Positions 7,066 through 34,728 of a DNA stretch of 34,728 nucleotides are shown in pieces (position 1 is the first letter of the stretch; each line of letters begins with the position of its first letter). This DNA comes from a virus. Lineage: Duplodnaviria > Heunggongvirae > Uroviricota > Caudoviricetes. Location: IMG/VR virus record IMGVR_UViG_2660237933_000001; one strand, written 5' to 3'. The position numbers were made by a program, and so were the translations under genes. The notes under the pieces are model-generated. The model was not told the DNA's origin, did not search any database, and saw nothing but the letters and a program-made list of their open reading frames with translations.

Positions 7066-7119
7066 TTTGTTGTCCTGTGAATTGGGTTCTGGCGCGGAAT
7101 CCCGCGCCGTTCAGATACA

Positions 7120-7635
7120 TCAGAGGCCGAGGGCGTTGCGGTGCGCTTCCATCAGGTCCACACCGTCCACAATTTCCACCATGTTGATAAGGTCCACTTC
7201 ATAGAGCACCTCACCATTGATGGTCAGCTTCGCGTAGCTGTTGGTACTGGTCACTTTGGTGGTGTTGCTTTCGCCCGTCTTCCACTCACCGGAATCCACT
7301 TCTTTGTGACGTCCACGTACCACAAGCTCCACGGGCTGCACTTCCCCGGTATCGTCACGCTGGATAGAGCCGGTAAAGCGCAGCTGGATGCCATCCACCG
7401 TGGCTTTGCCCATCTGCTTAAACAGCAGCAGTTCAGTACCACCAATGGAAAATTCTGTATCCAGTGCACTGTCATCCAGTCCCAGATCCACATCCACCGC
7501 CCCCGGCATACCGCCGCCGCGATACTTCTCATATTTGCGGGTGAATTTCGGCAGCGTCAGCGACTCAACGATTCCCTGCCAGTTGTTCCCGTCGTTAAAC
7601 AGGTTCAGATGTTTTAATTTGCGTGGTAAAGCCAT
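7120..7635 (-). CDS. FII: Tail tube protein (P2 gpFII-like)
   Basis: 171-aa ORF MALPRKLKHLNLFNDGNNWQGIVESLTLPKFTRK... recalled as gpFII family. Confidence 0.9.
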   Translation of the reverse strand: MALPRKLKHLNLFNDGNNWQGIVESLTLPKFTRKYEKYRGGGMPGAVDVDLGLDDSALDTEFSIGGTELLLFKQMGKATVDGIQLRFTGSIQRDDTGEVQPVELVVRGRHKEVDSGEWKTGESNTTKVTSTNSYAKLTINGEVLYEVDLINMVEIVDGVDLMEAHRNALGL

Positions 7636-7644
7636 GTTGTCCCC

Positions 7645-8817
7645 TTACGCGCTGACCTGGCTGGCGAAATTCACCAGGTACTGATCGGTGATGCGCTGGC
7701 GCAGCATCAGATTTTCAAGTGGCGGCACTGGCGTGTAGTCGTAGTCGATGGTGAGTTTTCCGGCTTTAAGCGTGTCTTTGTCGTTCACCGACTCATCCAA
7801 CCAGCAATCACCACCAATGAGATAGCCCTGACTGACCAGGTTGCGCATTTTGGCGCGGATACCTTCGATAATGTCGCGGGCCAGCGACGGGTTCAGCGGT
7901 TTGTCCACCGCCCACATATGTGCTTCTGCCATTGTGTCCATCAGTACCTGCGCTGTGCGGGTGTAGTTTTCGAAGGCAAAAAGCGGATCATCGCTCAGAC
8001 AGCGGGAACCCCAGAAGCGGAAACCATCCTTGCGCACAAGCGTGGTGACGTCGTTCTGGTTAAGCAGTCCCGCATCGGTTGCCGGGTCCTGCAGATCCCA
8101 GAACACATCAGCAGAAATTCCGGTGACACCGTTCACGCCCACGTTGGACAGGCTTTTGTGCCACCCGGTCTGCTCATCAATTTTGGCACGCAGACCAAGC
8201 GCACGGGCGGTGGCATATGCCGTTGCTTCGGCATTCAGCACCGTGTCCCAGCCAGTAAAGTCGGGCCAGATCAGCATCCCTTCGCGCTGGCTGAAGTTTT
8301 CACGGTAAGTGATTGCCTCCTGCACAGTCTTGCAGCCATACGCTGACAGGTAAGCAAACCCACGCAGGCTTTGCGCCACACTCAGCAACTCAGTAGCTAC
8401 CGCCTTGGTGTCGTGACCTGGTACACCCAGAATGCGCGGTTTAACGCCGAGCTGTGACTGAGCAGATAACAGAGCTTTCATGCCTGTTTTTTTACCTTCA
8501 GCAGTCACTGCGCCGATGATATTGGTCGTGGTTTCTTCTTCCGTTTCACCCTGCGGCACACGCACAACAACGGTCACGGGTTTTGCCTGGTCAGCGATGG
8601 CATCCAGCGAACGGGCCAGCGTGCCGGACTCACCCGCTTTACCGCTGGCAGTCAGCACATCAGTGATCAGCACGGGTTTATTAAGAGGAAACATTTTTGC
8701 ATCGGCATCATCGCCCGTGCAGACCATACCCACGATGGCGGTGCTCACCGTGGTAATGGATCGGGTGCCTTCGTTGACTTCAACAACGCGCACCCCGTGG
8801 TGGTAATCCTGAGCCAT
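7645..8817 (-). CDS. FI: Contractile tail sheath protein (P2 gpFI-like)
   Basis: 390-aa [43 protein letters not shown]... recalled as gpFI family. Confidence 0.9.
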
Positions 8818-8893
8818 AGTGGCGAACCTCCTGATTGGATTAGGCTTCGCCCTATGTTGAAGTGATTGTGCCTGACAAACAGCTAAGCGCAGT

Positions 8894-8911
8894 TGTACCG
8901 TTATTCACACA
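8894..8911. promoter_or_regulatory. Candidate late-promoter activator site (TGT-N12-ACA dyad) upstream of FI
   Basis: TGTACCGTTATTCACACA in the FI-invertase intergenic region; extended motif TTGTACCG-N5-CACACAAA is shared with the site at 20878-20899. Confidence 0.45.
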
Positions 8912-8959
8912 AAATGACGGTATTTGTCTGCTTTCAGGGATAATCAAAATAAAGCTGAT

Positions 8960-9526
8960 TCAGGGAGATTTATTGCTCTTATTTGCCGGAAGTTTTCGAT
9001 AAATGGTAGAAACGCCTACATCAAAAATCAGTGCAATACGCTGTCTTGATTCTCCGGCCTCGAGTAAACGTCCAATCTGTGCCCACTGTTCAGTGGTCAA
9101 CTTAGGACGGCGTCCACCTACTCTGCCTTTAGCACGAGCTGCAGCCAGCCCTGCCCGGGTACGTTCAACTATCAGTTCGCGTTCCATTTCAGCCAGGGCA
9201 CCCATGACATGAAAAAAGAAACGGCCCATTGGGGTACTGGTATCAATACTGTCAGTCAGGCTTCGGAAATTCACACCACGCTGGCGCAACTCTTCTATCA
9301 GCGTAACAAGATGCCGCATACTGCGCCCCAACCTGTCCAGCTTCCAGACAACCAGCGTGTCTCCTGCCAATAGTGTCCTGAGCAGTTTTTTAAGCCCCGG
9401 TCTGTCGGACTTAGTGCCACTGATTTTGTCCTCAAAAATCCGCTCACATCCCGCGCAGTTCAGCGCATTACGTTGCAAATCGGTGTTCTGGTCATTTGTT
9501 GACACGCGTACATAGCCAATAAGCAT
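8960..9526 (-). CDS. Serine recombinase, DNA invertase of the Gin/Hin/Pin/Cin family
   Basis: MLIGYVRVSTNDQNTDLQRNAL...GDTLVVWKLDRLGRSMRHL...DSIDTSTPMGRFFFHVMGALAEMERELIVERT is near-identical in pattern to Mu Gin; start placed at the second ATG (GGGAG 6 nt upstream). Confidence 0.9.
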   Translation of the reverse strand: MLIGYVRVSTNDQNTDLQRNALNCAGCERIFEDKISGTKSDRPGLKKLLRTLLAGDTLVVWKLDRLGRSMRHLVTLIEELRQRGVNFRSLTDSIDTSTPMGRFFFHVMGALAEMERELIVERTRAGLAAARAKGRVGGRRPKLTTEQWAQIGRLLEAGESRQRIALIFDVGVSTIYRKLPANKSNKSP

Positions 9527-9581
9527 GATCATCTCCCTGAATAAAAATAGGGGATGATGCCAGTTAGCCGTAATCGCTGCA

Positions 9582-9607
9582 TTTTCTTAAACGTTGGTTT
9601 GGGAGAA
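9582..9607. repeat. Inversion crossover site, left (hix/gix-like, 26 bp)
   Basis: TTTTCTTAAACG-TT-GGTTTGGGAGAA; inverted copy of the site at 11439-11464, sharing TTCTCCCAAACCAA. Confidence 0.65.
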
Positions 9608-9970
9608 GCGGCAAAACGGGATGTGGGTAACGGGCAAAACCAAATTCCTGATATGTCAGCGTGGGAGTGTGGGGGAGATACAACGACGGGATGGAGGCGA
9701 AGCCCGGATGGTTATATTGAACAATGGGGGCTAACTGAGGCCACAACAAATGAAGTTTTGATTAATTTTCCTATCCCATTTCCGACAGCCGTCATTTCTA
9801 TTAATGAACATGACCAGGCTCCTGTGGCAGGGAAAATGTCAGTATGGCAATTCTATAAATTGACTAACTCAAATGTCATAGCAGAGAACCTGGGATCTCT
9901 TGATAAAGGAAATCCATCCTTCAATGTTCCAACTGTCGCTGGTTGCCGCTGGTTTGCTACAGGAAGATAA
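9596..9970 (+). CDS. Alternative tail-fibre C-terminal segment (silent orientation, no own start)
   Basis: Open frame runs through the left crossover site encoding ...GLGE-AAKRDVGNGQ...; the same GGTTTGGGAGAA (GLGE) codons occur in the H frame at the right site, so inversion gives an in-frame H fusion. Confidence 0.6.
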   Translation, partial: GLGEAAKRDVGNGQNQIPDMSAWECGGDTTTGWRRSPDGYIEQWGLTEATTNEVLINFPIPFPTAVISINEHDQAPVAGKMSVWQFYKLTNSNVIAENLGSLDKGNPSFNVPTVAGCRWFATGR

Positions 9971-9971
9971 A

Positions 9972-10412
9972 ATGAGTAAATATCTTTACGATGCAAAAAC
10001 TAATATGTTTTACCCATTTACTCTGGAAAGTCAGTATAAGGAGTCTGGGTTATGGCCTCATAATGGAGTTGAAGTTGATGAGGATATATTTATTAAGTAC
10101 CTGTCCCCACCTCCAGGGAAAGTGAGAGTTGCGGGTGATGATGGCTATCCTGCATGGGATGACGTACCGCCGCTAACTCATGAAGAACAACTGTCAGAAG
10201 CGGAACGAAAAAAACAGGCACTCATAAATCGAGTTAATGAATATATTAACAGTAAGCAGTGGCCAGGAAAGGCTGCTATTGGTCGTCTGAAAGGTGAGGA
10301 ACTGGCGCAATATAATTCATGGCTTGATTATCTGGACGCACTGGAAATGGTTGATATTTCCAGTGCTCCAGATATTGAATGGCCTACGCCTCCGGCTGTT
10401 CAGGCCAGATGA
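9972..10412 (+). CDS. Tail fibre assembly protein (alternative, for the silent fibre tip)
   Basis: Starts 1 nt after the alternative fibre segment stop (MSKYLYDAKTNMFYPF...); C-terminal ...LDYLDALEMVDISSAPDIEWPTPP parallels the other assembly protein; the ORF track shows a longer frame starting at 9900. Confidence 0.7.
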   Translation: MSKYLYDAKTNMFYPFTLESQYKESGLWPHNGVEVDEDIFIKYLSPPPGKVRVAGDDGYPAWDDVPPLTHEEQLSEAERKKQALINRVNEYINSKQWPGKAAIGRLKGEELAQYNSWLDYLDALEMVDISSAPDIEWPTPPAVQAR

Positions 10413-10977
10413 TATCCGGCGCGGTGCTGGTATCTGTTGCCGTCACCGCGTCAATGTAATCCAGCACGGCGTTAAGTCGGGTTGTTTCTGCCTGCGTCAG
10501 CTTCCGCCCGGCCTGCAATTTCAGTTGAATCAGACTGATGGAAGCCATTGCAGCATCAATCAGCGACTGGCGCTGTGCTTCTGCCGCGTCTACTGCGGCA
10601 CTATGCTGTGCCTCAGTATCTGTCACCCATTTCTCACCATCCCATTTATCGTATGGCGTTAACGGTGAAAGCGTGACATAACCGTCTTTGATGGCACCGA
10701 TATAATCCACTGTAACAGCTGCGCCATTTTCGATTGAGTAAGCAGTCTCATTGCGGTGGTCTTCTTCATGGCTCCATCCCTTACCCGTAAATACTGCCAC
10801 TTTCCCCGGAATGTATTCGCCCGGGTCAATACCAGTGGAACAGGCGGGCATACTTACACCAGTATTAATATATTCATCAGACCAGCCAGTATATTCAGAC
10901 GTTACTGCATCATAATAAAAACAACGCATATCACCCGGCACTGTAGCCAGCCCATTTTTATCAAAAACAGGTTTCAT
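10384..10977 (-). CDS. G: Tail fibre assembly protein (gpG/Tfa-like, expressed orientation)
   Basis: 197-aa ORF immediately downstream of H; C-terminal ...LDYIDAVTATDTSTAPDIIWPEQP motif typical of Tfa proteins. Confidence 0.8.
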   Translation of the reverse strand: MKPVFDKNGLATVPGDMRCFYYDAVTSEYTGWSDEYINTGVSMPACSTGIDPGEYIPGKVAVFTGKGWSHEEDHRNETAYSIENGAAVTVDYIGAIKDGYVTLSPLTPYDKWDGEKWVTDTEAQHSAAVDAAEAQRQSLIDAAMASISLIQLKLQAGRKLTQAETTRLNAVLDYIDAVTATDTSTAPDIIWPEQPEA

Positions 10978-12500
10978 TATTTAGCCCTTACTAAAAAGTT
11001 GAATGCAATGTTACGTGGGCGTGTTTCGGTGCCGCCTGGTACATTAAAAGCCGCAGCGGTGCCACTACCATCATCCTGACTAATACCACTCGTATATATG
11101 CCGTTCGAATTACGCTGGAGGGCGAAAACCGTTCTTGTTCCAGTACCAGCAGAAGGACCGTAGTATTGCAAATTAAATTGTTTCATCAGGTCAGACTGCG
11201 TACTAAGTAATCCACGTCCACTATCTACACCACGACCATCATCCCAGATACGAATGAAATCACCGCGGGCTTCAGGTAATACCAGCGAAGGAAACACTTT
11301 CGCCAGCACAGGGTAATCAGTGGCAGAGAATTTCGCGCCGTTGAACTTCAAAAACACCATACTGGACCAGCTGTCGATTACAGTATTTGGCATTGCCTCG
11401 GAGGGCCAGAAGAACGGAACGCCAATAGCTGGAGCGCCTTCTCCCAAACCAAGGTATGTGAGAAGACCAGCTACATCCTTTCCACTCAAATTAGTCAGCG
11501 TATTGTCCAGCGGTTGTTTACCTGCCAGCGCATTAAGCATTGTCGTGGCAAAGTTCGGGTCATTCCCCAGCGCTGCCGCCAGTTCGTTCAGTGTATCCAG
11601 TGCCGCAGGTGCAGAACCCACCATTGCCGCAATCGCCGATTTCACAAATGCCGTGGTGGCAATCTGTGTATTGTTGACCGACTGTGCCGCAGTAGGTGCG
11701 GTTGGCGTTCCGGTGAGTGCCGGACTCGACAGCGGCGCTTTCAGTGCCAGCGCATTGTTAATGGTGGTACTGAATTTCGGATCATTGTTAATGGCTGCGG
11801 CTATTTCTTTCAGCGTGTCCAACGTGGCTGGCGCACCATTAATAAGAGCCGTCAGAGCCGCCTGAACAAACGCGGTGGTCGCAATCTGCGTGGTGTTATT
11901 CCCTGCGGCTGGCGTTGGCGCTTTGGGTGTCCCGGTAAACGTCGGACTTTCTTTGGGTGCATACTGTGAATGCGGGTCCGGTGCGGCAAGATGTTTTGCC
12001 ATCTGATCATCCGCGTACACCTTCAGCTCCAGTGCCTTGTCATCCACATACTTGCGGGTTGCCAGCACTACGGCAGGGTCGATTTTCAGGGTGATATTGT
12101 CCGTGCTGCTGGTAATCAGCACCATGCGCACGGTCTGAGTGCGCCCGCTACCTTCAGCCAGTTGCGGCTTATAGCTTTCCGGGCAGTTGCCCACGGCAAT
12201 CAATGCCCCGGACTCATCAAACAAGCCCACTTCACGTATCCACCAACCGCCCTCGTTTTCAGGGATCACCTGTTCGGCAATAATCTGGCTGCTGTTCTGC
12301 GGGTCGATATAGAGCATATTCAGCGCAGCCCGGCGTTTCTCATTTACCAGTGCAGTCTGCTTTGAGTCTGGCGTTGGCAATACTCCGCCGCCATCGCCGA
12401 CCGCCATATGGGTAATTTTTAGCGGCACACCGAGCGCGGCGGCGCTGGCAAGTTTCGCCGCGCCAATATCCGTCAGCAGGGTATAAAATTTTGTGCTCAT
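10977..12500 (-). CDS. H: Tail fibre protein (P2 gpH-like)
   Basis: 507-aa ORF, N-terminus MSTKFYTLLTDIGAAKLASAAALGVPLKITHMAVGDGGG... recalled as gpH constant region; the C-terminal ~158 aa lie inside the invertible segment. Confidence 0.9.
   Translation of the reverse strand: MSTKFYTLLTDIGAAKLASAAALGVPLKITHMAVGDGGGVLPTPDSKQTALVNEKRRAALNMLYIDPQNSSQIIAEQVIPENEGGWWIREVGLFDESGALIAVGNCPESYKPQLAEGSGRTQTVRMVLITSSTDNITLKIDPAVVLATRKYVDDKALELKVYADDQMAKHLAAPDPHSQYAPKESPTFTGTPKAPTPAAGNNTTQIATTAFVQAALTALINGAPATLDTLKEIAAAINNDPKFSTTINNALALKAPLSSPALTGTPTAPTAAQSVNNTQIATTAFVKSAIAAMVGSAPAALDTLNELAAALGNDPNFATTMLNALAGKQPLDNTLTNLSGKDVAGLLTYLGLGEGAPAIGVPFFWPSEAMPNTVIDSWSSMVFLKFNGAKFSATDYPVLAKVFPSLVLPEARGDFIRIWDDGRGVDSGRGLLSTQSDLMKQFNLQYYGPSAGTGTRTVFALQRNSNGIYTSGISQDDGSGTAAAFNVPGGTETRPRNIAFNFLVRAK
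11439..11464. repeat. Inversion crossover site, right (26 bp)
   Basis: TTCTCCCAAACC-AA-GGTATGTGAGAA inside H, inverted relative to 9582-9607. Confidence 0.65.
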
Positions 12501-13102
12501 GGATTCACTCTCATTGTGTCAATAACATGGACCGCCCCGCCTTCATGCGCGGTGCCGCCAGAAATAATTGTTTCGTTGATATACGGATAGATCGTGATTT
12601 CTTCGCCAAGATAGCTGGCGGCCCCCACCCAATGCGGACCGCTGGTCTGCAGATTGATGGACATGCCGATCATGTGACGGCTACATGGTTTGGCATCGCT
12701 TATCAGCCGCTCAAGTTCCAGATAGGTATCTTCAGTGATGCCCTGGTCCTGCACGCCGATATCCAGGCGAAACGTGCCCGGTGTTTCTCCGGTCTGCCAC
12801 CACTCAATAATGCGGATCAGGAATCCGAACGGTTCCACCACCCGCCGCACGGCACTGGTGGTTCCTTTATGCTGATGAATATAAAAAGCATCCTTCACTA
12901 CCTGGCGTTTGACGCTTTCTGTCCAGCCCTCGTCCCAGCGATCCACAGAGAACGCCCAGGCGAGATAAGGCAGGAAGTTGACCGGACAGGTAGCCGGATT
13001 CCACAAGTCACGCAGCGGCACCTGCAAATCAGAAATCCCGCTACAGGTTTGCGCCAGTCGGCGCTCCAGTGAAGTTGAACCCGGTGGCAGCAGACTATTC
13101 AT
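12497..13102 (-). CDS. I: Baseplate protein (P2 gpI-like)
   Basis: 201-aa ORF, synteny J-I-H and recalled similarity. Confidence 0.85.
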   Translation of the reverse strand: MNSLLPPGSTSLERRLAQTCSGISDLQVPLRDLWNPATCPVNFLPYLAWAFSVDRWDEGWTESVKRQVVKDAFYIHQHKGTTSAVRRVVEPFGFLIRIIEWWQTGETPGTFRLDIGVQDQGITEDTYLELERLISDAKPCSRHMIGMSINLQTSGPHWVGAASYLGEEITIYPYINETIISGGTAHEGGAVHVIDTMRVNP

Positions 13103-14003
13103 CCGTTCCTCCGTTGGTTACGCTCCACTGCGTACATGATGCCGCCTGTGTTTTGTTCAGGACCACATCCGCCAGCGGAGAAGCCAGTTCCACACGTTGA
13201 ACACCCTCAACATGCAGAGCAGCAAAGATGGCGCTACGGCGAATATCCCGACCAAGCCTCGTCTGGCTGGCAATGTACTTCTGCAGACTGGCTTTTGCCG
13301 CTGCCATTACCGGCTCTGCTTCCGGTCCCGGATAGAGAAAAATGGTGGCTTCCACGCGATACGGGATGATTTCTGCGCTGCGAACCGTAAGACGGTCAGC
13401 CACCGGGCGGACGTTCTCACTGTTCAGAGCTTTTTCCACCACGTCCAGCAGGTCTTTTTCTGCAGTTCCATCGCCTTCGCGGCTAAGGACAGTCAGCACC
13501 ACCTCTGCAGGTGCCGGGCTGGTTGCACTGGCATCCGCCACCCGACCGTCGGCGCTTCGGGCATGAAATTCATAAGCTGCAGTTGGCCCCGCAACAGAAA
13601 GCCCTTCAAAGGCTGCAGGCACACGCAGGCGCAACGCTTCATCGCTTTCCATCACAGCTGCAACGGGCGGCACAGCATCATTATCAGCAGGCGTCACCGT
13701 CAGGCGTGTCACGTTGTAGTTGGCAGCGAGCTGGTCAAGATCGCCGCCCATCGCGTAAGCCACCATCACCGCCTGCGCGGCTTCGTTAATGCGCTGGCGC
13801 AGAAGCAACTCACGGTAAACGTTCTCCTGCAACAATTTAGTGGCGGGTTCAGATTCCAGTTCCAGCGTGCGGATCACTGCTTCCTGCTCATCTTTCGGAT
13901 GAAGCGCCACAAATTCTGCCTTGCGTTCGGCAAGCAGCGTCTCAAAGTCCGGCACATCCACAATCTGCGGTGCAGGCAACTGCGAAAGGTCAATCACTGC
14001 CAT
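13095..14003 (-). CDS. J: Baseplate protein J (P2 gpJ-like)
   Basis: Start placed at MAVIDLSQLPAPQIVDV... (gpJ-like N-terminus), 14 bp overlap with W. Confidence 0.85.
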   Translation of the reverse strand: MAVIDLSQLPAPQIVDVPDFETLLAERKAEFVALHPKDEQEAVIRTLELESEPATKLLQENVYRELLLRQRINEAAQAVMVAYAMGGDLDQLAANYNVTRLTVTPADNDAVPPVAAVMESDEALRLRVPAAFEGLSVAGPTAAYEFHARSADGRVADASATSPAPAEVVLTVLSREGDGTAEKDLLDVVEKALNSENVRPVADRLTVRSAEIIPYRVEATIFLYPGPEAEPVMAAAKASLQKYIASQTRLGRDIRRSAIFAALHVEGVQRVELASPLADVVLNKTQAASCTQWSVTNGGTDE

Positions 14004-14349
14004 TCTCTGCTCCTGTTGATACGGAAAGGGACACAGGCACACCGTTATTCCGCCGCCCGGTCAGCTCCACCACCATTGAACCGTCAAAATTGCTGTTGAT
14101 GGTGATGGAATCCAGCGTCAACCGTGGCTCCCAGCGACTCAGCGCCACATACACTGCCGACATGACCTGCAGGCGTAATGTCGGATTTTGTGGCTGATCT
14201 ATCAGTGCCGACAGCAGGGAACCATATTCCCGGCGGGCAATACGGCTACCCTGCGGTGTCAGCAGAATGTCCCGCACCGACTGGCGCAGATGATCAATAT
14301 CAGTAATGACTTTGCCGCTGGTATTGTTCATCCCGCTATAAAGCGTCAT
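13990..14349 (-). CDS. W: Baseplate wedge protein W (gp25-like)
   Basis: 119-aa ORF, synteny and recalled GPW/gp25 family similarity. Confidence 0.85.
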   Translation of the reverse strand: MTLYSGMNNTSGKVITDIDHLRQSVRDILLTPQGSRIARREYGSLLSALIDQPQNPTLRLQVMSAVYVALSRWEPRLTLDSITINSNFDGSMVVELTGRRNNGVPVSLSVSTGAENGSD

Positions 14350-14924
14350 ACCGGGCCTCCGGTTGTATCGCCGCCTTTCAGGACGCCAGTATGCTGATGC
14401 GCATCAACCACGATCCCGTTAGAACTCATCGCTCCGCCGCCCTGGGTAACGCCACCATTGATCACCACTTCGCTGTTAATGCGCGTGCGGTCAGCCTCCA
14501 GTACAAACTCACTGGTTTTCATGGTGATGTTGTCAGCGGCCTCAATGACCATTGATTTGATGCCCCTGACATACCAGCGCCCGGTGGCGGGTTCGTATTC
14601 AAACCAGCCACCGTCAGGATGTTCTGTCACGCAGGCGTCCGCCGACGTCGACGGTGGCGCGAACTGATTCGAATAGATGGCGGGTAACGCAAAGGCGGTT
14701 TCCAGATTGCCGCCCAGACTCAGCAGCACCACCTGCTCACCTTCCGATGGTCGCCACCATGTGCGGGCATTCCCGGCACGCAGCGTCAGCCAGCTGATCC
14801 AGTTGGTTTCAAGCTCGCCCGTTTTCACCCGGCAAAGCCAGTTTTCCCTGTCCACTTCGGTGACTACCCCTGTGCGGATCAGGTTGGTGATAAGGCGCAT
14901 GATTTCGGTTAATTGTGCGTTCAT
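14346..14924 (-). CDS. V: Baseplate spike protein V
   Basis: 192-aa ORF MNAQLTEIMRLITNLIRTGVVTEVD... recalled as gpV family. Confidence 0.85.
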   Translation of the reverse strand: MNAQLTEIMRLITNLIRTGVVTEVDRENWLCRVKTGELETNWISWLTLRAGNARTWWRPSEGEQVVLLSLGGNLETAFALPAIYSNQFAPPSTSADACVTEHPDGGWFEYEPATGRWYVRGIKSMVIEAADNITMKTSEFVLEADRTRINSEVVINGGVTQGGGAMSSNGIVVDAHQHTGVLKGGDTTGGPV

Positions 14925-14970
14925 AGGGAAAGGTTGCCATCAGGGGAAGAAAGGCGGCAGTGCTGCAACT

Positions 14971-14988
14971 TGTATCAGTGCTGATACA
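14971..14988. promoter_or_regulatory. Perfect palindrome TGTATCAG-TG-CTGATACA (TGT-N12-ACA) between S and V
   Basis: Lies in the 68-bp S-V intergenic gap where P2 carries its pV late promoter; could instead be a stem-loop. Confidence 0.3.
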
Positions 14989-14992
14989 AAGA

Positions 14993-15439
14993 TCACCCCG
15001 CCAGCCATTGCAGAATCATGTCGCGGGTCATTGCCTCAACATCATCATTTACACCCAGCAGGCGGCGCTCTGCGTAACGGACCTCCGGTCCTTTGCGACT
15101 GACGCGATCACGCAGGCCGTAATGGTGAACACGGGCAATACGCTGCACCTTGCCTTCAAACTGTACGCTGGCAGAGTCGGCGCTGGCGGCAGTTTTCAGG
15201 TATTTTGTGGTGCGCAGCTTTGCAAACATCTGACGTTTGATGCGCCCCTTCTTGCTGCGTGCTGTTACCCTGCGCGGTTCATAACTGCTGCCATCTGGAT
15301 TGCGCTGCATCCTGATATTCTGCTGCTGTGTCCGGCGCAGTTCCTGCGCCAGCTGGCGCATCATGCGGCTTCTCGTGGCTGGTTCCAGATTCGCCAGCAA
15401 GGCACTCAGCCAGTCGTCCACCTTCTGCAGTTCAGCCAC
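14993..15439 (-). CDS. S: Tail completion / virion morphogenesis protein S
   Basis: 148-aa ORF, synteny R-S-V and recalled family similarity. Confidence 0.8.
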   Translation of the reverse strand: MAELQKVDDWLSALLANLEPATRSRMMRQLAQELRRTQQQNIRMQRNPDGSSYEPRRVTARSKKGRIKRQMFAKLRTTKYLKTAASADSASVQFEGKVQRIARVHHYGLRDRVSRKGPEVRYAERRLLGVNDDVEAMTRDMILQWLAG

Positions 15440-15884
15440 GTTTCACCGTCCACATTTCTTCAGGTTCATCGGGTTCTGCTACAGCTTCAACGCTCGACAC
15501 ACTGCCGTCAGTGCTGACCAGCACACGTTCCGTCAGTTGCAGGTTAAGGCTGATATCACAGACATCGTTGCGCAAAATATCCACATCAAAGGTGAATAGC
15601 TTTTCCCGTAACGCCGGGTTATTGATGGCATCGGGCTGGTTATCCCGAAGCCACAGTAAAACCGGGGCCATCAGCAGATTCTGGTCGCCGCTGAAATCCT
15701 CTATCACCACGTTCAGGGTGTAGCGGTACTCCCATGACATGGAGCTGGCCCCCGTGGCAACCAGCGAACCGTTATCCACAAACAGATGCAGTTTGTCCGG
15801 GTTATTGCGGACATAAGGCACCGCTTTATTGAGGGCGTGGCGCAGGGATTGTGGTTTGTTCACTGTTTCGCTCCTGACACGCAA
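15432..15884 (-). CDS. R: Tail completion protein R
   Basis: 150-aa ORF, synteny; start uncertain. Confidence 0.75.
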   Translation of the reverse strand: MRVRSETVNKPQSLRHALNKAVPYVRNNPDKLHLFVDNGSLVATGASSMSWEYRYTLNVVIEDFSGDQNLLMAPVLLWLRDNQPDAINNPALREKLFTFDVDILRNDVCDISLNLQLTERVLVSTDGSVSSVEAVAEPDEPEEMWTVKRG

Positions 15885-23792: not shown

Positions 23793-24131
23793 TTAACAAA
23801 CGGCGTATAAACCATCAAATCCAACGGAATGAACCTTTTTTGATGCTACTTCATTACTACGGCGTTGGATCACTTTTGCAATACTTTTTAAAATTGAAGG
23901 GGGTGCATTGCGAACCTTAACTTGACTCAAAACTTTGGTTACACCGAATTTCACTACCAAAACACCAAAGATTTCATCAGAGTATGATTCTGAAATTGAA
24001 TAAACACCGCTCAGATCTAAATCTACGGTATACCCTTCTTTAATGAACCCTTCAATCTTGTGTCGTTGGGGGATAGCCTGATTGCGCGAAGCCAGGTCAC
24101 CCTCGGGTAACTTGTATGCGATTTTGTTCAT
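23793..24131 (-). CDS. Hypothetical STAS-like (anti-sigma-factor-antagonist-like) small protein
   Basis: 112-aa ORF; strong AGGAGG RBS; start overlaps the upstream gene stop (TAATG). Motif DLDLSGVYSISESYSDEIFGVLVV resembles the SpoIIAA/RsbV-type phosphorylatable-serine region. AT-rich. Confidence 0.6.
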   Translation of the reverse strand: MNKIAYKLPEGDLASRNQAIPQRHKIEGFIKEGYTVDLDLSGVYSISESYSDEIFGVLVVKFGVTKVLSQVKVRNAPPSILKSIAKVIQRRSNEVASKKVHSVGFDGLYAVC

Positions 24132-25105
24132 TACTCTCCTCCTAACGCCCGCATTATTTCCATAAGCTGAGGGTCATTTTCTTCGCTATCTTTATCGACT
24201 GCCAGTTCATGAATCTTAAAACGGCAAGAAATTGCTACACCCGGCCATTCAGTACGTAATTCAGTATAGCTCACTTCATCACCTATTGCTTCTAAGCATA
24301 CATTTCCTGAAGCCAGTTGCAATTCCCCGTTATATGTTTTTATCAATTTCATCAAGTGATACAACCCAAGCCCTTGATGATTATTATCTTTTTCTTTGAC
24401 CGAAACCCCGTGGCCAAACACACTACCCCCAATAAAGTCCTGGGGAAGCTGCTGTGCCCAATCATCCTGCAAATCAGCATGCTTAGATGAATGTCCCTCT
24501 TGAATACACCATGCGATCGCATCCTGGTGAGTCTCAATTCCGGGTATACCAGCTCGCCGCAATTCTCGGAGAAATCCTAACCCACAGTCCGCCAAAGAAA
24601 ATTCTAAATAGTGCTCTTTTTTTTGAGTGTGGGGTACAGCCGAACGTTGTGCAAAAGAAAAACCCGTTGATTTTCCATGCGACCAAACGTTATCGTGAAG
24701 CTCACCTATAACATGGGTTAGATCTGTAAGTCCCTTGGGACAATCTCTCGGATCACGATCAGGGAATGTTAACTGCCTTACACAACTGTTAATACTACCA
24801 GTGGCAACGTCAACAGCTTCAACATTGGTTAATGCTGTAACCAAACTGTAATTTCTTCCAACATTTACACGTTCCTGTTGATACTGATCCTCTCCCCATA
24901 AAGCACCATGTAAATTGATAGCTCGCATATAGCCAGGGCATGACAAAACACAGTTATCTTCGGTAATTTTGTGATGATTCACGTAAGCTGCTAAGACAGT
25001 GATAAAACCAGGATGCCAATGATTGTTTGGCAATTGCAATTCATTAGTTTCCTTTTGATGAAACGCAGCGGTATGCACAATAGCGTCTTTTAATCCTAAC
25101 CCCAT
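24131..25105 (-). CDS. Hypothetical GHKL-family ATPase / serine-kinase-like protein
   Basis: 324-aa ORF. C-terminal half has an N-box-like ELHDNVWSHG (E, N+4, H+8, G+9 spacing as in SpoIIAB/RsbW), a G1-like DCGLG and a G2-like GLGLYHL; N-terminal ~125 aa unassigned. AT-rich. Confidence 0.6.
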   Translation of the reverse strand: MGLGLKDAIVHTAAFHQKETNELQLPNNHWHPGFITVLAAYVNHHKITEDNCVLSCPGYMRAINLHGALWGEDQYQQERVNVGRNYSLVTALTNVEAVDVATGSINSCVRQLTFPDRDPRDCPKGLTDLTHVIGELHDNVWSHGKSTGFSFAQRSAVPHTQKKEHYLEFSLADCGLGFLRELRRAGIPGIETHQDAIAWCIQEGHSSKHADLQDDWAQQLPQDFIGGSVFGHGVSVKEKDNNHQGLGLYHLMKLIKTYNGELQLASGNVCLEAIGDEVSYTELRTEWPGVAISCRFKIHELAVDKDSEENDPQLMEIMRALGGE

Positions 25106-26031: not shown

Positions 26032-28446
26032 TTAATACAGATCCCGCCACTTATCATCTTCCTGCAAACGCTGGTTCCGATAGAAGATACGCAGGCCTGC
26101 TCCTGACGGAATACTGCCGCCGCGAAGGAGTAAACCGACCTCTTTCTCGCTGCCATCAAATCCTCTGGACTTCAGCTCATAGACGAGCTGCTGTCGCTGA
26201 TGGTCTGTAATTCGCTGTTTGTAGTCTTTACGCCGTTTCGGTTTCACCAGGCGTAACCTTGCAGCCAGTTCCCGGCGCTCTTTTTTGCTCATACTGTGCA
26301 GGTAATCGTGCAACTCCTTGTCATCCATGCGGGTAATGTCCATTCTGGTATCCCCATAAGCTGATTTGTCTTTCCCTTGTTGGTTCAAATTTTCAGCAAG
26401 GGGACAGTTATTGCCACGAGTCCAAGGGGCGCAAGCGCCCTGGTCGGCTGCCGCCTCCTGAACGTCAACGGCCTTACGAACCATTTTCCACTTCACTGCA
26501 TGAGTGCAGATTTTGCCCTCTGCAATGGGTGACCAGATGCCATAAATACGAATGCCGTGATCGCCATAGGCGGTCGGCTCTTCGTTGATTTCATAAGCGG
26601 TTCTGATGAGGTGATATTTACGGGGAACCAGTACGCCGCCCTGCTTCATGATGTAGGTGGCAAAACAACCAGCATCAGCTGCAGCCAGAATGGCATCAAG
26701 GCGCTGGTTATCCAGTACCGGCGCACCTGCTTTTTTGTCACCCTGTTGCCTTGCCGCCTGACCAGCCAGCAATCGCAGTTCACGGTAAGCCTGACGCCCC
26801 GGAATGCCAAAGAAGCGGAATTGCTGAACACGATGCAGAGACGCCCAGGCATTAACGTATTCAGCGTTATCACGCAGAGATTTACCCGTTTCCTTGCTGA
26901 TCTCGCCAGCCAGACCACGCCCGTCAATGTTCTTACTGATGTATTTCGCGATGTAGCTAGTCGGCGTTCCTTTGCGCGGGTTTATCAGCTCAGACTTAAA
27001 GCGTGGCCCCGTGTTATTACCCAGCTCCTCGCGGTCTTCACGGATAGCAAACTTACGCAACAATGCAGTAATGGCGCGGCGGTCTTTTTTGCGCATGAAA
27101 CACAACAGGTGCCAGTGAACTGTGCCGTCATGATGCGGCTCAGCCACCCGCACGCCATACCAGCGCAACCCGGCTTTGTGCATCGCCTTACGAAATGCAG
27201 CAAACATGCCGACCAGATAATCACTGCTTTGTCTTACCGTCGCATTTGTCCAGGTCGGGTTGGGCCTGCCGTTATTTAGCGTGGAATGGAAACGTGACGG
27301 ACAGGTGATGGTGTAGAAAACGGCGCAGTCACCGCGCATTTCCGCGATAAGCTCCAGACCTTTAACACAGGCCATCATCTCATTGCGGCGATGCGCAGGG
27401 TTGCTGCTGCTGGCGTTTACCACATCCTCCATGTCCAGCGTGTCGCCGTCTTCGTTCACCAGTTCATGAGAACGGAAAAACTCCAGCGACTTACGGCGCT
27501 GCTCACGTTTATGCATCACGGCTTCATAGCTGACATAGGGAGATGCTTTTTTGCTGACCAGGCAAACAGCACGCAACTGCTCTTCCCGCCATTCGCAACG
27601 CATCTTCCATAATTTCCGGTACCACCAATCGGCGCACAACATACGCGCCAGCGAACCCGGAATGAGTTCATAGGGCACGGGTTTACGGCGGTTTCTTTTC
27701 CGGCGGAGTTGCTCAAACGCAGGCGGTATGACATCCAGTCGCAGGGTTTCTGCTGCCACCTTTTCCCATGTCTTGCGGATTTCTTCTGGCTTAACATCAT
27801 CGGTGGCGTACAAATCACCACAAGCGGCATCAAGACACATACTCATATGCGCAGCGACAAGAGTAGACAGGCGTTTCACCTGATCCTGACTCATTTCAGG
27901 CAAGATCAGCAGGCCGTCCAGCCCTTCATGGCTTGCCATAAAGCGAAAAGAAGTGGATAGCTGACTGTCGCGTACATGCTCCAGTCGTTCCAGACATGGC
28001 TTAATCGTCTCACGCAAATAGCGGGAATAAGCCTTTGGCCTGCCCAGGCTGCTGAAGTATTCAATACGTTGCATCAGCGGCTTGCTGATATGGGAAGGCT
28101 GGGCGTTAACGTCCGCCAGTATGACCATGTCCGGATTAAAACGCTGCTGCTCATGCGCCAGCTTTGCCCGGCTAATAAGCTTATCCTGCTCCATTTCGCG
28201 CTGGACAGGATCACGGGATTCATTAAAGAAATAACGCTCCCAGACCTGATCACTCAGTGCCTCGCGGCGCAGTTGTTCCTGCTCGTTATCGGCAGCGTAC
28301 AGAGTGATCAGGTTTGAAAGCGCAGAAACCGGCGCAACTTCCGCCGGGTCCAGATAAGGGTTAATAGCCTTTTTCGGGCTGTTCCATGAGAATGCTGCGG
28401 CGGCCTCGTTAAAGCCGCTGCAGTTGTTCATATCAGCATGGCTCAT
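26032..28446 (-). CDS. A: Replication initiation protein A (rolling-circle nickase)
   Basis: 804-aa ORF with an HxH-containing segment (GTVHWHLL) and a tyrosine motif [16 protein letters not shown], as recalled for P2/186 gpA. Confidence 0.9.
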
Positions 28447-29300
28447 GCACGCACTCCGTACACGGCAGAACTATCCACGCCACGCGAAGAATCAAATCCC
28501 ACCCAGCAGCGTGCCCCAGAAACAGCGATGATTTCTGTTGCAGATTTACTCTCACCAGCTGCTACGCCGATGCTGCGTTTTGCCTTGATGTAGTGGTGAG
28601 TAAAATTGCGATACAGCGAACGGATCAGGGATGTGTCACTGTTAGAAACAATGACCGGATGTCCTTCTGATGACCGATGTTCAAGAACGGATGCCAGGTG
28701 ATACTGGTCATCTTCAGTGAAACCATCAGTGTGATAGCCGGAAAACGTACCGTCATACGGCGGATCGCAATACACCACATCCCCCGCCTTCAACATCGCC
28801 AGCGTTTCATCAAAGCTGGCGCAGATAAACGTTGCTCGCAGGGCCTTTTCTGCAAATGCGCGAATTTCTTTTTCAGGGAAATACGGATTTTTATAATTAC
28901 CGTAGGGAATGTTGAAATGCCCGCTCTTGTTATAGCGACATAAACCACGGTAACCGTGACGATTGAGATACAGGAAATATACCGCTTTCATGAAATCAGT
29001 AATTTCAGTTGAGTAATTAAACTCCTGCCTTATGTTGTAATAAGCCACCTCCCTGTTTGCGATCTCAAATAAAACTCTGGCGCGAGATATAAACGATTCA
29101 CAATCAGCAGCAACCTTTTTATAGAGGTTGATTAAATCAGGATTAATATCCGCAACAAGATAGCTGGGGTAATCCGTCTCCATCATCACAGCACAGGAAC
29201 CCGCGAAAGGTTCAACCAGTCGCGGGCCAGCAGGAAGATGTTTTTTCAGTTCGGACATAATGGTAGTTTTATTACCCGCCCATTTCAGGATGGTGCTCAT
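28443..29300 (-). CDS. dam: DNA adenine methyltransferase (Dam-like)
   Basis: [11 protein letters not shown]..., EPFAGSCAV (FxGxG) and VVYCDPPY (DPPY) motifs; start placed at the internal ATG with GGAGG RBS, overlapping the upstream stop (ATGA). Confidence 0.9.
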
Positions 29301-29599
29301 ACAGCACCTCCTGCAATAACATATCCTAAAGCTTCTAATGGGGTTAATGGGCGAATTGATAGCATCACCCATTGTTCTGAAACTGCCATGACGTCATTAA
29401 CCGGAAGCACATGAGAGATAACAGCGGCCCATTCCCTACCCGTAAATACGCCATGCTTCCATTCGCAAAGAGAAAGAACATCACCAACTTTATAGCCACG
29501 ATCGTCTTTACGAAGTTCAGCCGTCTTTTGACCTGCAACCACAGCGTTGAAATACTTAGGTGCAATTTTTAATTGATGGATACGCACTGCCCTTGTCAT
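29297..29599 (-). CDS. DUF3850/ASCH-like small protein
   Basis: [47 protein letters not shown]... fits the DUF3850 pattern as I recall it; GGAGG RBS 7 nt upstream of the ATG at 29599. Confidence 0.6.
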
Positions 29600-33198: not shown

Positions 33199-34728
33199 GT
33201 GATTAAAAATATAGACATTCAATCAGATGCTGTTGCTAAATTGAGAATGGACTCTATTCGTTCAGAAATTCAAAGTTATAACCCCGAATTATTCATTGAA
33301 TTCTGCATGCAATATAATCTACAAAAATTTGATGATAATTTACACATGCTGCGTCATATGCCGTGGATAGTAAACTTATGTTTAAAATGGTCAGCATCTG
33401 TAATAGGCAAGAATAGAAAGTTCAAAACCCTTACAAAAAATCAAGCCATCAAGCTATTTCAAAAAGCCTATGAAACTTTAAGTATCATCCCCATTGGTCT
33501 TGAAAAGAAAAACGGAGTGCATTTTTTTCCAAGAAATAATTTATACCAGCAAGGTATTTATCAAAAAATTGACGCAATAAACTCCATTAGCAGACAGGTA
33601 TTTTTATTCTCACAACTCGAAAACACTCATAAAATAAAGACATCGTTTTTCAAGTTAACAAACATTTCAATTGATGATTTTTTAAAACTATCTTACATTT
33701 TAATATCACTAATAACAACGGAACATCCCGTCAGAAAAATAAATGTTAATAGTTTCAGTGTGTTATTCCCTATTTTACCCAAAGATACCGTAGAGAACTT
33801 TCTCGATGCAATCTCAATAAATTACAGTGAGCTATCAAAATTTTCAAAATCCAAGACATTTGAAAAGCCTTTGTTAGAATACTATTCATCTTCACCGTAC
33901 TTAGAAAATCCTTTAATCAAAAAAGGTTCTGATTATTTCCAGATACATGCACAACTAACATCAAGAAGCATACAAACATTTATATATGACCTTTTAAGAA
34001 GAACTGACGCTGAAAAATTCATGGACAGTTTTGGAACTGTATTCGAAAGAGCATTAGGAAAAATTATTCAAGAGAGTAATATTCCTGTTATCACAGAGGA
34101 TCATCTTAAAGAAAAGTTACCCAAAGATAATAAAGTAGTTGATTTTTTGTTTCCACACGCGAATGCAAATATATTCATTGATGCCAAGGGGGTTGAAATA
34201 CATCAAAAAGGCATGGTTACTTTACGGCCAGAGGATATTTCAGGAAAAATAAAAAAGTCTGTTTTAAAAGCTATCGAGCAAGCTCATGAAGTTAACAGAG
34301 AAATTTACTTAGACGATAAAGCAACAATAACCCCATTCAGGAAAGAATCTTTTGTGATATGCATTACATATAAAAACTTATTTTTAGGTAATGGTACATT
34401 CCTTGCCAGTACATATGCAGAAACTGAGATGCTAAAGATATATGATAAATTCAATACTGACTACCACATACCTAAAGAAAATATATTTTGCTTAGCTTTT
34501 GATGAATTTGAGTACCTTGTTGCATCCTGCAAAAATGCACATGTGCCTCCTCATATGGTTCTGCAATACGCAGTTGAAAAGAACAAAGAACCATCCAGTG
34601 CAGCCTTCCTTTTTTCCCAACATATAGAAAGCTATTTTGATAGAGTTATTAATTCTGATGTAGTAAATGAGATGGGAATAAAAATGGTTGACTCAGTTCT
34701 GGAAAAAATTTCCCAAAATGAAAACTAA
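33199..34728 (+). CDS. Hypothetical 509-aa protein, possible PD-(D/E)xK nuclease-like core
   Basis: Long uninterrupted ORF, strongly AT-rich and Lys/Asn/Ile-rich, starting 12 bp after int; contains VVDFLFPHANANIFIDAKG (D...hhh-D-x-K); no Walker A motif seen. Confidence 0.6.
   Translation: MIKNIDIQSDAVAKLRMDSIRSEIQSYNPELFIEFCMQYNLQKFDDNLHMLRHMPWIVNLCLKWSASVIGKNRKFKTLTKNQAIKLFQKAYETLSIIPIGLEKKNGVHFFPRNNLYQQGIYQKIDAINSISRQVFLFSQLENTHKIKTSFFKLTNISIDDFLKLSYILISLITTEHPVRKINVNSFSVLFPILPKDTVENFLDAISINYSELSKFSKSKTFEKPLLEYYSSSPYLENPLIKKGSDYFQIHAQLTSRSIQTFIYDLLRRTDAEKFMDSFGTVFERALGKIIQESNIPVITEDHLKEKLPKDNKVVDFLFPHANANIFIDAKGVEIHQKGMVTLRPEDISGKIKKSVLKAIEQAHEVNREIYLDDKATITPFRKESFVICITYKNLFLGNGTFLASTYAETEMLKIYDKFNTDYHIPKENIFCLAFDEFEYLVASCKNAHVPPHMVLQYAVEKNKEPSSAAFLFSQHIESYFDRVINSDVVNEMGIKMVDSVLEKISQNEN

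Follow-up and report, generated by a model that had tools for sequence, protein, structure and literature searches.

A probable two-state inversion switch of the Gin/Hin family for the tail-fibre tip of a P2-like prophage

A phage tail-fibre gene that runs into a segment holding two oppositely oriented fibre C-terminal modules, beside a gene for a DNA invertase, raises the question of whether the phage carries one fibre tip or two and, if two, by what means they are exchanged. The locus considered here lies in 34,728 nucleotides of viral DNA (IMG/VR record IMGVR_UViG_2660237933_000001, Caudoviricetes; the window, hereafter, is this whole stretch), in which a sequence-only reading had placed a Gin-like serine invertase beside an invertible segment of about 1.9 kb. 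It is very likely, at a probability of about 0.9, that the locus is a two-state site-specific inversion switch of the Gin/Hin family, i.e. of the Mu G type, located among the tail-fibre genes of a P2-like prophage. No structural part that makes up an invertible fibre cassette of the Gin/Hin type is missing or damaged.

Crossover sites and fibre modules

The elements of the switch, with their positions in the window, are as follows.

8960-9526, minus strand: DNA invertase, a serine recombinase of 188 residues from the ATG at 9526 (Pfam Resolvase, PF00239, 1e-52, and HTH_7, PF02796, 1e-15; PHROG 125 'DNA invertase', 3e-100)
9442-9505, in the 5' coding region of the invertase gene: putative Fis-dependent recombinational enhancer, from synonymous-site conservation
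9491-9505: box I of the putative enhancer, GTGTCAACAAATGAC on the minus strand, codons 8-12
9442-9456: box II of the putative enhancer, GCGCGGGATGTGAGC, codons 24-28
9582-9607: proximal (left) crossover site, 26 bp, core dinucleotide TT at 9594-9595, from the repeat search and dyad layout
9596-9970, plus strand: silent fibre C-terminal module Hv', 124 residues (Pfam Gp53-like_C, 2.6e-12; PHROG tail-fibre and virion structural families)
9972-10412, plus strand: silent tail-fibre assembly chaperone Tfa', 146 residues, partner of Hv' (Pfam Caudo_TAP, 2.7e-34; PHROG 188, 8e-58)
10384-10977, minus strand: expressed tail-fibre assembly chaperone Tfa, 197 residues, partner of the current Hv (Pfam Caudo_TAP, 4.8e-28; PHROG 105, 4e-84)
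10977-11450, minus strand: current fibre C-terminal module Hv, 157 residues plus stop (PHROG tail fibre / tail collar fibre, 5e-51 and 3e-49)
11439-11464: distal (right) crossover site, 26 bp, within the H reading frame, core AA at 11451-11452
11453-12500, minus strand: constant N-terminal part of H, about 350 residues, outside the invertible segment (Pfam Phage_tail_fib, 3.8e-65, residues 1-150)
10977-12500, minus strand: whole fibre gene H, of P2 H type, 507 residues, with the Phage_tail_fib N-terminal domain

The two inverted 26-bp sites proposed as boundaries of the segment were recovered on recomputation. The left site, TTTTCTTAAACG-TT-GGTTTGGGAGAA, and the right site, TTCTCCCAAACC-AA-GGTATGTGAGAA, are identical at 21 of 26 positions when compared as inverted 26-mers, and the pair 9582-9608 / 11438-11464 is the longest and top-ranked inverted repeat between positions 7500 and 13000 (27 nt, 81% complementary). 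Both sites are imperfect dyads in which two 12-bp half-sites flank a 2-bp core (12-2-12), and their cores are reverse-complementary, as is characteristic of the Din family, including on direct comparison with Mu gix. The inner half-site and core form a 14-mer, TTCTCCCAAACCAA, which is common to both sites and is present at just two places in the window, one per strand; shuffled sequences gave a mean of 0.02 matches with one mismatch allowed, and none of 100 shuffles contained two. Scanning all of the window on the basis of the half-sites gave no third crossover site above threshold. The locus thereby differs from multiple-inversion systems, which have more than two sites and more than two arrangements, e.g. 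shufflons, p15B Min and the P2 locus with three inverted repeats in enteropathogenic Escherichia coli (EPEC).

The content of the segment, read from the letters as two convergent tail-fibre assembly genes and two alternative fibre C-terminal segments, is borne out by the Pfam and PHROG matches listed above. The constant part of H, which lies outside the segment and downstream of homologues of P2 I, J and W on the same strand, is driven by the upstream tail operon; inside the segment, two opposed variable C-termini are each followed by their own chaperone gene, as is expected of a split fibre gene. The Hv' module is promoterless in the present orientation, and the open reading frames (ORFs) of both silent genes, Hv' and Tfa', are intact, with no stops. 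Protein comparison detected no similarity between Hv and Hv' past the GLGE junction, and in-frame comparison of Hv with the silent module and with Mu S and S' likewise found none; Hv and Hv' are, moreover, assigned to different PHROG/Pfam families. The presence of unrelated tips from different families is suggestive, being as expected for alternative receptor-binding domains. The likeness of Tfa to Tfa' is confined to the C-terminal approximately 70 residues, where identity is 36%. As a whole, the switch is located between a chaperone gene and that for the tail sheath, a position known from other P2-like phages (Fels-2 fin, EPEC).

Being convergent, the two chaperone genes share 29 nt at their 3' ends (10384-10412), the last approximately nine codons of each lying on opposite strands; the same overlap is annotated in relatives.

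Inversion product and natural orientations

Both sites encode Gly-Leu-Gly-Glu in their respective frames, as had been noted from the sequence. The further proposal, that inversion swaps the H C-terminus along with its chaperone, holds in that an in-frame product of 474 residues results, and needs amendment as to the exchange point, which shifts to the core dinucleotide (11451-52 / 9594-95), within a Leu codon and four codons upstream of the point at which the sequences diverge. When the inversion product was built by reverse-complementing 9594-11452, H remained open, the native protein of 507 residues, ending ...YLGLGEGAPAIGVPFFW..., being replaced by one of 474 residues, ending ...YLGLGEAAKRDVGNGQ...; the junction context changes from ...TYLGLGEGAPAIGVPFFW... 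in the native to ...TYLGLGEAAKRDVGNGQ... in the flipped form. A complete fibre is thus encoded in either orientation because both cores lie in frame within the ...L-G-L-G-E... motif.

The predicted flipped arrangement occurs in nature. A 700-nt query spanning the predicted flipped junction matched six complete E. coli genomes as a single uninterrupted piece at 96-98% identity, while the native junction was found in 30 complete E. coli genomes at a coverage of at least 80%, seven of them at full length. RefSeq annotation of two of the flipped genomes gives the predicted arrangement, including a fused fibre gene of 1425 nt (474 residues). When flipped E. coli S163-2 was compared with the window by blastn, the two were collinear over 7102-9608 and 11438-15802 and inverted over 9591-11464; collinearity is lost at 9591-9608 and 11438-11464, which places the breakpoints on the two sites. 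Relatives therefore carry the segment in either orientation, with the sites as its ends. A single orientation together with an inactive invertase, which would speak against the sequence-only reading, is not what was observed: both orientations occur among relatives, and the invertase retains its catalytic and Fis-contact residues.

Paired-end mapping in EPEC E2348/69 has revealed inversions that arise within cultures in its P2 prophages (Goldberg et al. 2014, PMC4272514), including a two-state event at NC_011601.1:2977580-2979467 that flips in clonal cultures and is 93 +/- 4% forward (PMC4272514, Table S1). The EPEC locus concerned (NC_011601.1:2976324-2979507) closely resembles that in the window: its proximal site is identical to the left site at 26 of 26 positions, its distal site has the same inner half-site and core, the published end-points are the two core dinucleotides, and its invertase is 80% identical to that of the window. 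The order of elements (invertase, gp53-like module, Tfa-441, Tfa-603 and fibre-tip module, beside sheath and tube genes) is shared, and the segments are of similar length, 1888 bp in EPEC versus 1883 bp in the window. By contrast, the EPEC locus is a remnant, in which H lacks its constant part and the distal site borders directly on a truncated integrase pseudogene; its fibre-tip modules (37-42% identity) and chaperones (59-64%) are diverged homologues of those in the window. Inversion in EPEC thus persists in a decapitated remnant and can outlive fibre function.

Related loci are widespread. The 3.7-kb region has partial matches in 2967 of 5426 complete E. coli genomes, a matching genome having 2 such places at the median and 9 at most, and in 81 phage records, which include Klebsiella and Escherichia Peduovirus-type phages annotated with a 'DNA invertase' and two 'tail fiber assembly' genes. 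In 79 loci across Enterobacterales the proximal site is typically at -80 from the invertase ATG, a position matching that in the window (approximately 80 nt upstream), and the distal site is 1.1-2.2 kb further on. At every locus with both sites detected, the core pairs are reverse-complementary and fall into two classes, AA/TT and GA/TC, between which productive cross-recombination is not expected.

In a few of these loci the proximal site is far from the invertase (-1012 in a Salmonella locus, -584 in an Erwinia locus), which suggests that DNA has been inserted between the two. Of the 79 species-representative assemblies, 20 have a contig that stops at the proximal site, 64-131 nt upstream of the invertase start, as short-read assemblers would be expected to produce from a segment present in both orientations or from a repeated invertase gene. 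One locus is on a 716-nt contig with approximately three times the coverage of a neighbouring contig in the same assembly.

The invertase and a putative enhancer

The description of the recombinase as a Gin-like serine invertase is upheld by its Resolvase and HTH_7 domains and by its match to the Mu Gin structures 3UJ3/4M6F (E 4e-92 over 184 residues), in which the nucleophile motif VRVSTNDQ is aligned intact; the nucleophilic Ser (Hin S10, Gin S9) and Arg43 are both present. The gene itself had been correctly recognized, with an extent of 8960-9532, but its start is probably not the one given. The in-frame ATG at 9532 would yield 190 residues, and the ATG at 9526 (MLIGY...) is the most likely start because the alignment with Gin and the annotation of RefSeq relatives begin there. 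The residues conserved only in Fis/enhancer-dependent invertases are, in Hin, Lys47, Lys/Arg48 and Lys/Arg51 in helix B and Gln151, Arg154 and Leu155 in helix 1 of the DNA-binding domain (McLean et al. 2013, PMC3798978). At the aligned positions the window invertase has K, K, R, Q, R and L, so that all of the diagnostic residues are present, and its activity is predicted to be Fis-dependent.

A perfect 12-nt inverted repeat, ATTCAGGGAGAT / ATCTCCCTGAAT, at 8958-8969 / 9531-9542, exactly flanks the invertase gene. The idea that it delimits a mobile invertase cassette was rejected, the repeat not being conserved in four close relatives and approximately one such pair being expected by chance in 5.5 kb.

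The search for an enhancer used third-codon-position conservation, i.e. codon-level synonymous variability, in 75 invertase genes from the 79 related loci of species-representative genomes. Conservation was 0.88 over codons 8-12 and 0.76 over codons 24-28, against a background of 0.53 +/- 0.17 and a highest value of 0.70 for any other five-codon window. Both boxes so defined are 15-mers of the form G-N13-C; they jointly span 64 nt, their centres are 49 nt apart, and box I is approximately 97 bp from the centre of the proximal site. The Hin enhancer is 65 bp in length, has a Fis site at either end, and lies within the recombinase gene at approximately 100 bp from hixL (PMC3798978); that of Gin is also inside the invertase gene, according to the work of Kahmann et al. 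1985 as referenced in PMC3798978. The window thus has, at the homologous position in its invertase gene, a conservation footprint of about the size of the Hin enhancer and at about the same distance from one site. The pair of boxes matches the Hin/Gin enhancers in layout and is a putative enhancer, at which Fis would bind.

In the mechanism favoured here, the 1.86-kb segment presents two facing promoterless cassettes, each consisting of a receptor-binding C-terminus and then its own Caudo_TAP chaperone. Invertase dimers would bind both 26-bp sites and, with Fis at the approximately 64-bp enhancer in the 5' coding region of the invertase gene, would form an invertasome; cleavage at the AA/TT core dinucleotides would then be followed by a single 180-degree rotation of one half, i.e. 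by subunit rotation. The fixed tail operon would read the constant part of H into whichever cassette faces it, such that the tip is co-transcribed with its matching chaperone, and a population of lysogens would release virions with two fibre tips, presumably directed to different receptors. The examples of Mu, P1 and carotovoricin (referred to in PMC4272514 and PMC7953296) suggest by analogy that the two tips may confer different host ranges.

There are points that weigh against a functional switch of this type. The locus is known from a single sequence. The outer half-sites are degenerate (the half-sites of the left site match at 8 of 12 positions, and the two sites at 21 of 26), which could reduce the rate of flipping. 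A simple scan found no sigma-70-like invertase promoter between the proximal site and the ATG; a broader promoter/terminator scan of 8700-12700 was uninformative, giving 3 promoter-like sites versus 5.1 in shuffles. A strict Fis-consensus scan (G-N13-C, AT-rich centre, 46-50-bp spacing) gave no pair in the window, with box I found in Mu and in the window, and the enhancer rests on conservation and positional homology, its box centres being 49 nt apart, not 48. It might accordingly be proposed that the switch, derived from an active ancestor, is structurally intact without flipping to a meaningful extent in this prophage, e.g. through poor expression of the invertase or decay of the outer half-sites, the silent module being a relic. 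The imperfect outer half-sites and the lack of a promoter-like site directly upstream of the invertase are in keeping with such a proposal, as are the bias of the EPEC homologue (93% forward, indicating that rates can be low) and the single orientation that the window, by definition, contains. It is, however, unlikely given that the invertase ORF is full length with all catalytic and Fis-contact residues, that the proximal site is identical throughout its 26 positions to one that flips experimentally, that both silent ORFs are intact, and that relatives at 96-98% identity have the segment about equally often in either orientation (6 flipped and 7 native full-length junction matches). This copy, too, probably flips in its own host.

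A different proposal accepts the inversion but locates its main selected role in the lysogen rather than in phage host range, either via a fibre product that blocks adsorption or via an invertase that also flips, in trans, other invertible segments of the genome. In e14, inversion of the P segment by PinQ is reported to yield StfE2, which blocks adsorption of other phages (PMC12529663), and the EPEC homologue flips without a constant part of H; action in trans is plausible because E. coli genomes with matches commonly have more than one matching place. A further point in its favour is work by Kutsukake et al., cited by Goldberg et al., in which a second invertase, probably Fels-2 Fin, figures. 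As the main role this is nevertheless quite improbable: the prophage looks complete, the fibre is intact either way and each tip comes with a chaperone of its own, as would be expected of fibres that serve in virions, and H belongs to the late tail operon, which would normally not be expressed in a lysogen. That the switch serves the lysogen in addition, with the fibre product of one orientation hindering adsorption by competing phages or the invertase cross-flipping other chromosomal segments, is unlikely; if true, cross-flipping would couple several phase-variable loci. The EPEC remnant, flipping as it does without a fibre N-terminus, is the one observation that favours such a role specifically. 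The probability that chance accounts for the inverted repeats, or that they lend themselves to general (RecA) recombination or mis-assembly rather than to the adjacent recombinase, is close to negligible. Short inverted repeats are indeed frequent (25 pairs of at least 12 nt in 5.5 kb), but the 14-mer occurs twice where 0.02 matches are expected, the 12-2-12 dyad architecture is as in gix/hix, the position of the site relative to the invertase is conserved in dozens of genera, with the detected pairs having reverse-complementary cores, and natural inversions break exactly at the sites. Efficient RecA recombination needs far more than 14 nt of perfect identity, and the perfect identity of 14 nt available here is too short for it. 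The reading preferred is, therefore, that of a two-state switch acted upon by its own invertase.

Known systems and prophage context

The comparison with Mu G that had been suggested gave the same overall layout. In both Mu and the window the fibre constant part, segment and invertase follow in order on one strand, there are two convergent fibre-chaperone cassettes (Sv-U in Mu), the sites are 26-bp dyads of 12-2-12 architecture, the enhancer (putative in the window) is inside the invertase gene, and the crossover is in the fibre ORF at an ...LGL... motif (FIQNLGLQE in Mu, ...YLGLGE... in the window). The differences from Mu are quantitative: the segment is approximately 3 kb in Mu versus 1.86 kb in the window, the variable parts are approximately 330 residues versus 124/157, the constant part is 169 residues versus approximately 350, the perfect repeat is 34 bp versus 14 nt, and the core of gix is TC (from NC_000929) versus AA/TT. 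The fibre tips of Mu and the window are unrelated in sequence, their chaperones are weakly related (26-33% identity), and the backbone of the window is P2-like, not Mu-like.

With respect to Hin/hix, the recombinase is of the same subclass, with the same Fis-contact residues and a matching enhancer layout; Hin, however, is located inside its own segment and flips a promoter, whereas the window invertase is external to its segment and exchanges coding cassettes behind a promoter that stays in place. The core dinucleotide of hixL is AA. The e14 P segment/Pin and P1 C segment/Cin systems are, by description, alike in swapping a fibre C-terminus by means of a Din-family invertase, although on lambdoid and P1 backbones; the e14 inverted repeat given by Goldberg et al. 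(AAACCTTGGTTTGGGAGAAGG, PMC4272514) has the same core as the sites in the window. The fin locus (STM2702) of Salmonella Fels-2 is in a P2-like prophage, where a pin/gin-like invertase adjoins a segment whose inversion places one C-terminus or another behind an identical fibre N-terminus (PMC7953296); it is likened here by description and differs in host and in fibre modules. In a survey of approximately 1000 P2-like phages, a hotspot downstream of the baseplate genes was 'often' found to have a DNA invertase and inversion of adjacent genes (bioRxiv 10.1101/2024.10.15.618418).

The assignment of the switch to a P2-like tail module, as first read from the sequence, agrees with the Mu layout and with the P2 gene order of the window, the associated proposal on host range being retained as an analogy. 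The genes run D-U-T-E-FII-FI ... H-I-J-W-V ... terminase/portal, gpA, CI and integrase, with matches to the P2 Pfam families Phage_GPD, Tail_P2_I, Phage_sheath_1, Phage_GPA, Phage_CI_repr and Phage_integrase; the switch is flanked by FI/FII/E/T/U/D on one side and I/J/W/V on the other. The same assignment follows from the RefSeq annotation of a 97.9% identical relative and from megablast matches to Peduovirus-type phages. The prophage is apparently complete, with P2-like structural, replication, immunity and integration genes, and adjoins smpB-ssrA in E. coli. Its gpD/ogr end directly follows ssrA. A search beyond the integrase for an att site, in the form of a direct repeat of 12 or more nt from the 3' end of ssrA, found none within the window, and the right attachment site, or prophage end, is outside the window.

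Other features of the window are as follows.

1-483: smpB, 100% identical to E. coli
698-1060: tmRNA gene ssrA (tag ANDENYALAA), 100% identical to E. coli
1184-1666, plus strand, between ssrA and gpD: ORF of 160 residues, weak BRCT match (2e-3, below the Pfam cut-off) and PADLOC PDC-S48 candidate match (4e-7)
23793-25105, minus strand, between portal and gpA, at the P2 old/tin hotspot: pair of cargo genes, one for a DUF4325/STAS-like protein of 112 residues (weak PADLOC DrmA-fragment match, 5e-6), the other for a protein of 324 residues with sub-threshold GHKL-ATPase similarity (E 0.09)
28443-29372, minus strand, just downstream of gpA: D12-class (Dam-type) N6-adenine methyltransferase (Pfam 7e-76)
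33199-34728, plus strand, directly downstream of the integrase and stopping at the window end: ORF of 509 residues, with no Pfam or PADLOC family found

For the cargo ORFs PADLOC gave no more than weak matches; it is possible that the pair at 23793-25105 is an uncharacterised defence module.

A switch of this type is already known, having been described for Fels-2, for EPEC P2 prophages and in the survey of P2-like phages, and the present locus adds nothing new to the Din-family paradigm; its value is mainly for annotation. The 417-nt 'gp53-like' ORF and the second chaperone gene are a silent cassette, not separate genes. Assemblies tend to break, or to take an arbitrary orientation, here, and each of them predicts only one of the two fibre proteins. 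In predicting the host range of P2-like phages, or in engineering them, both tips need to be considered.

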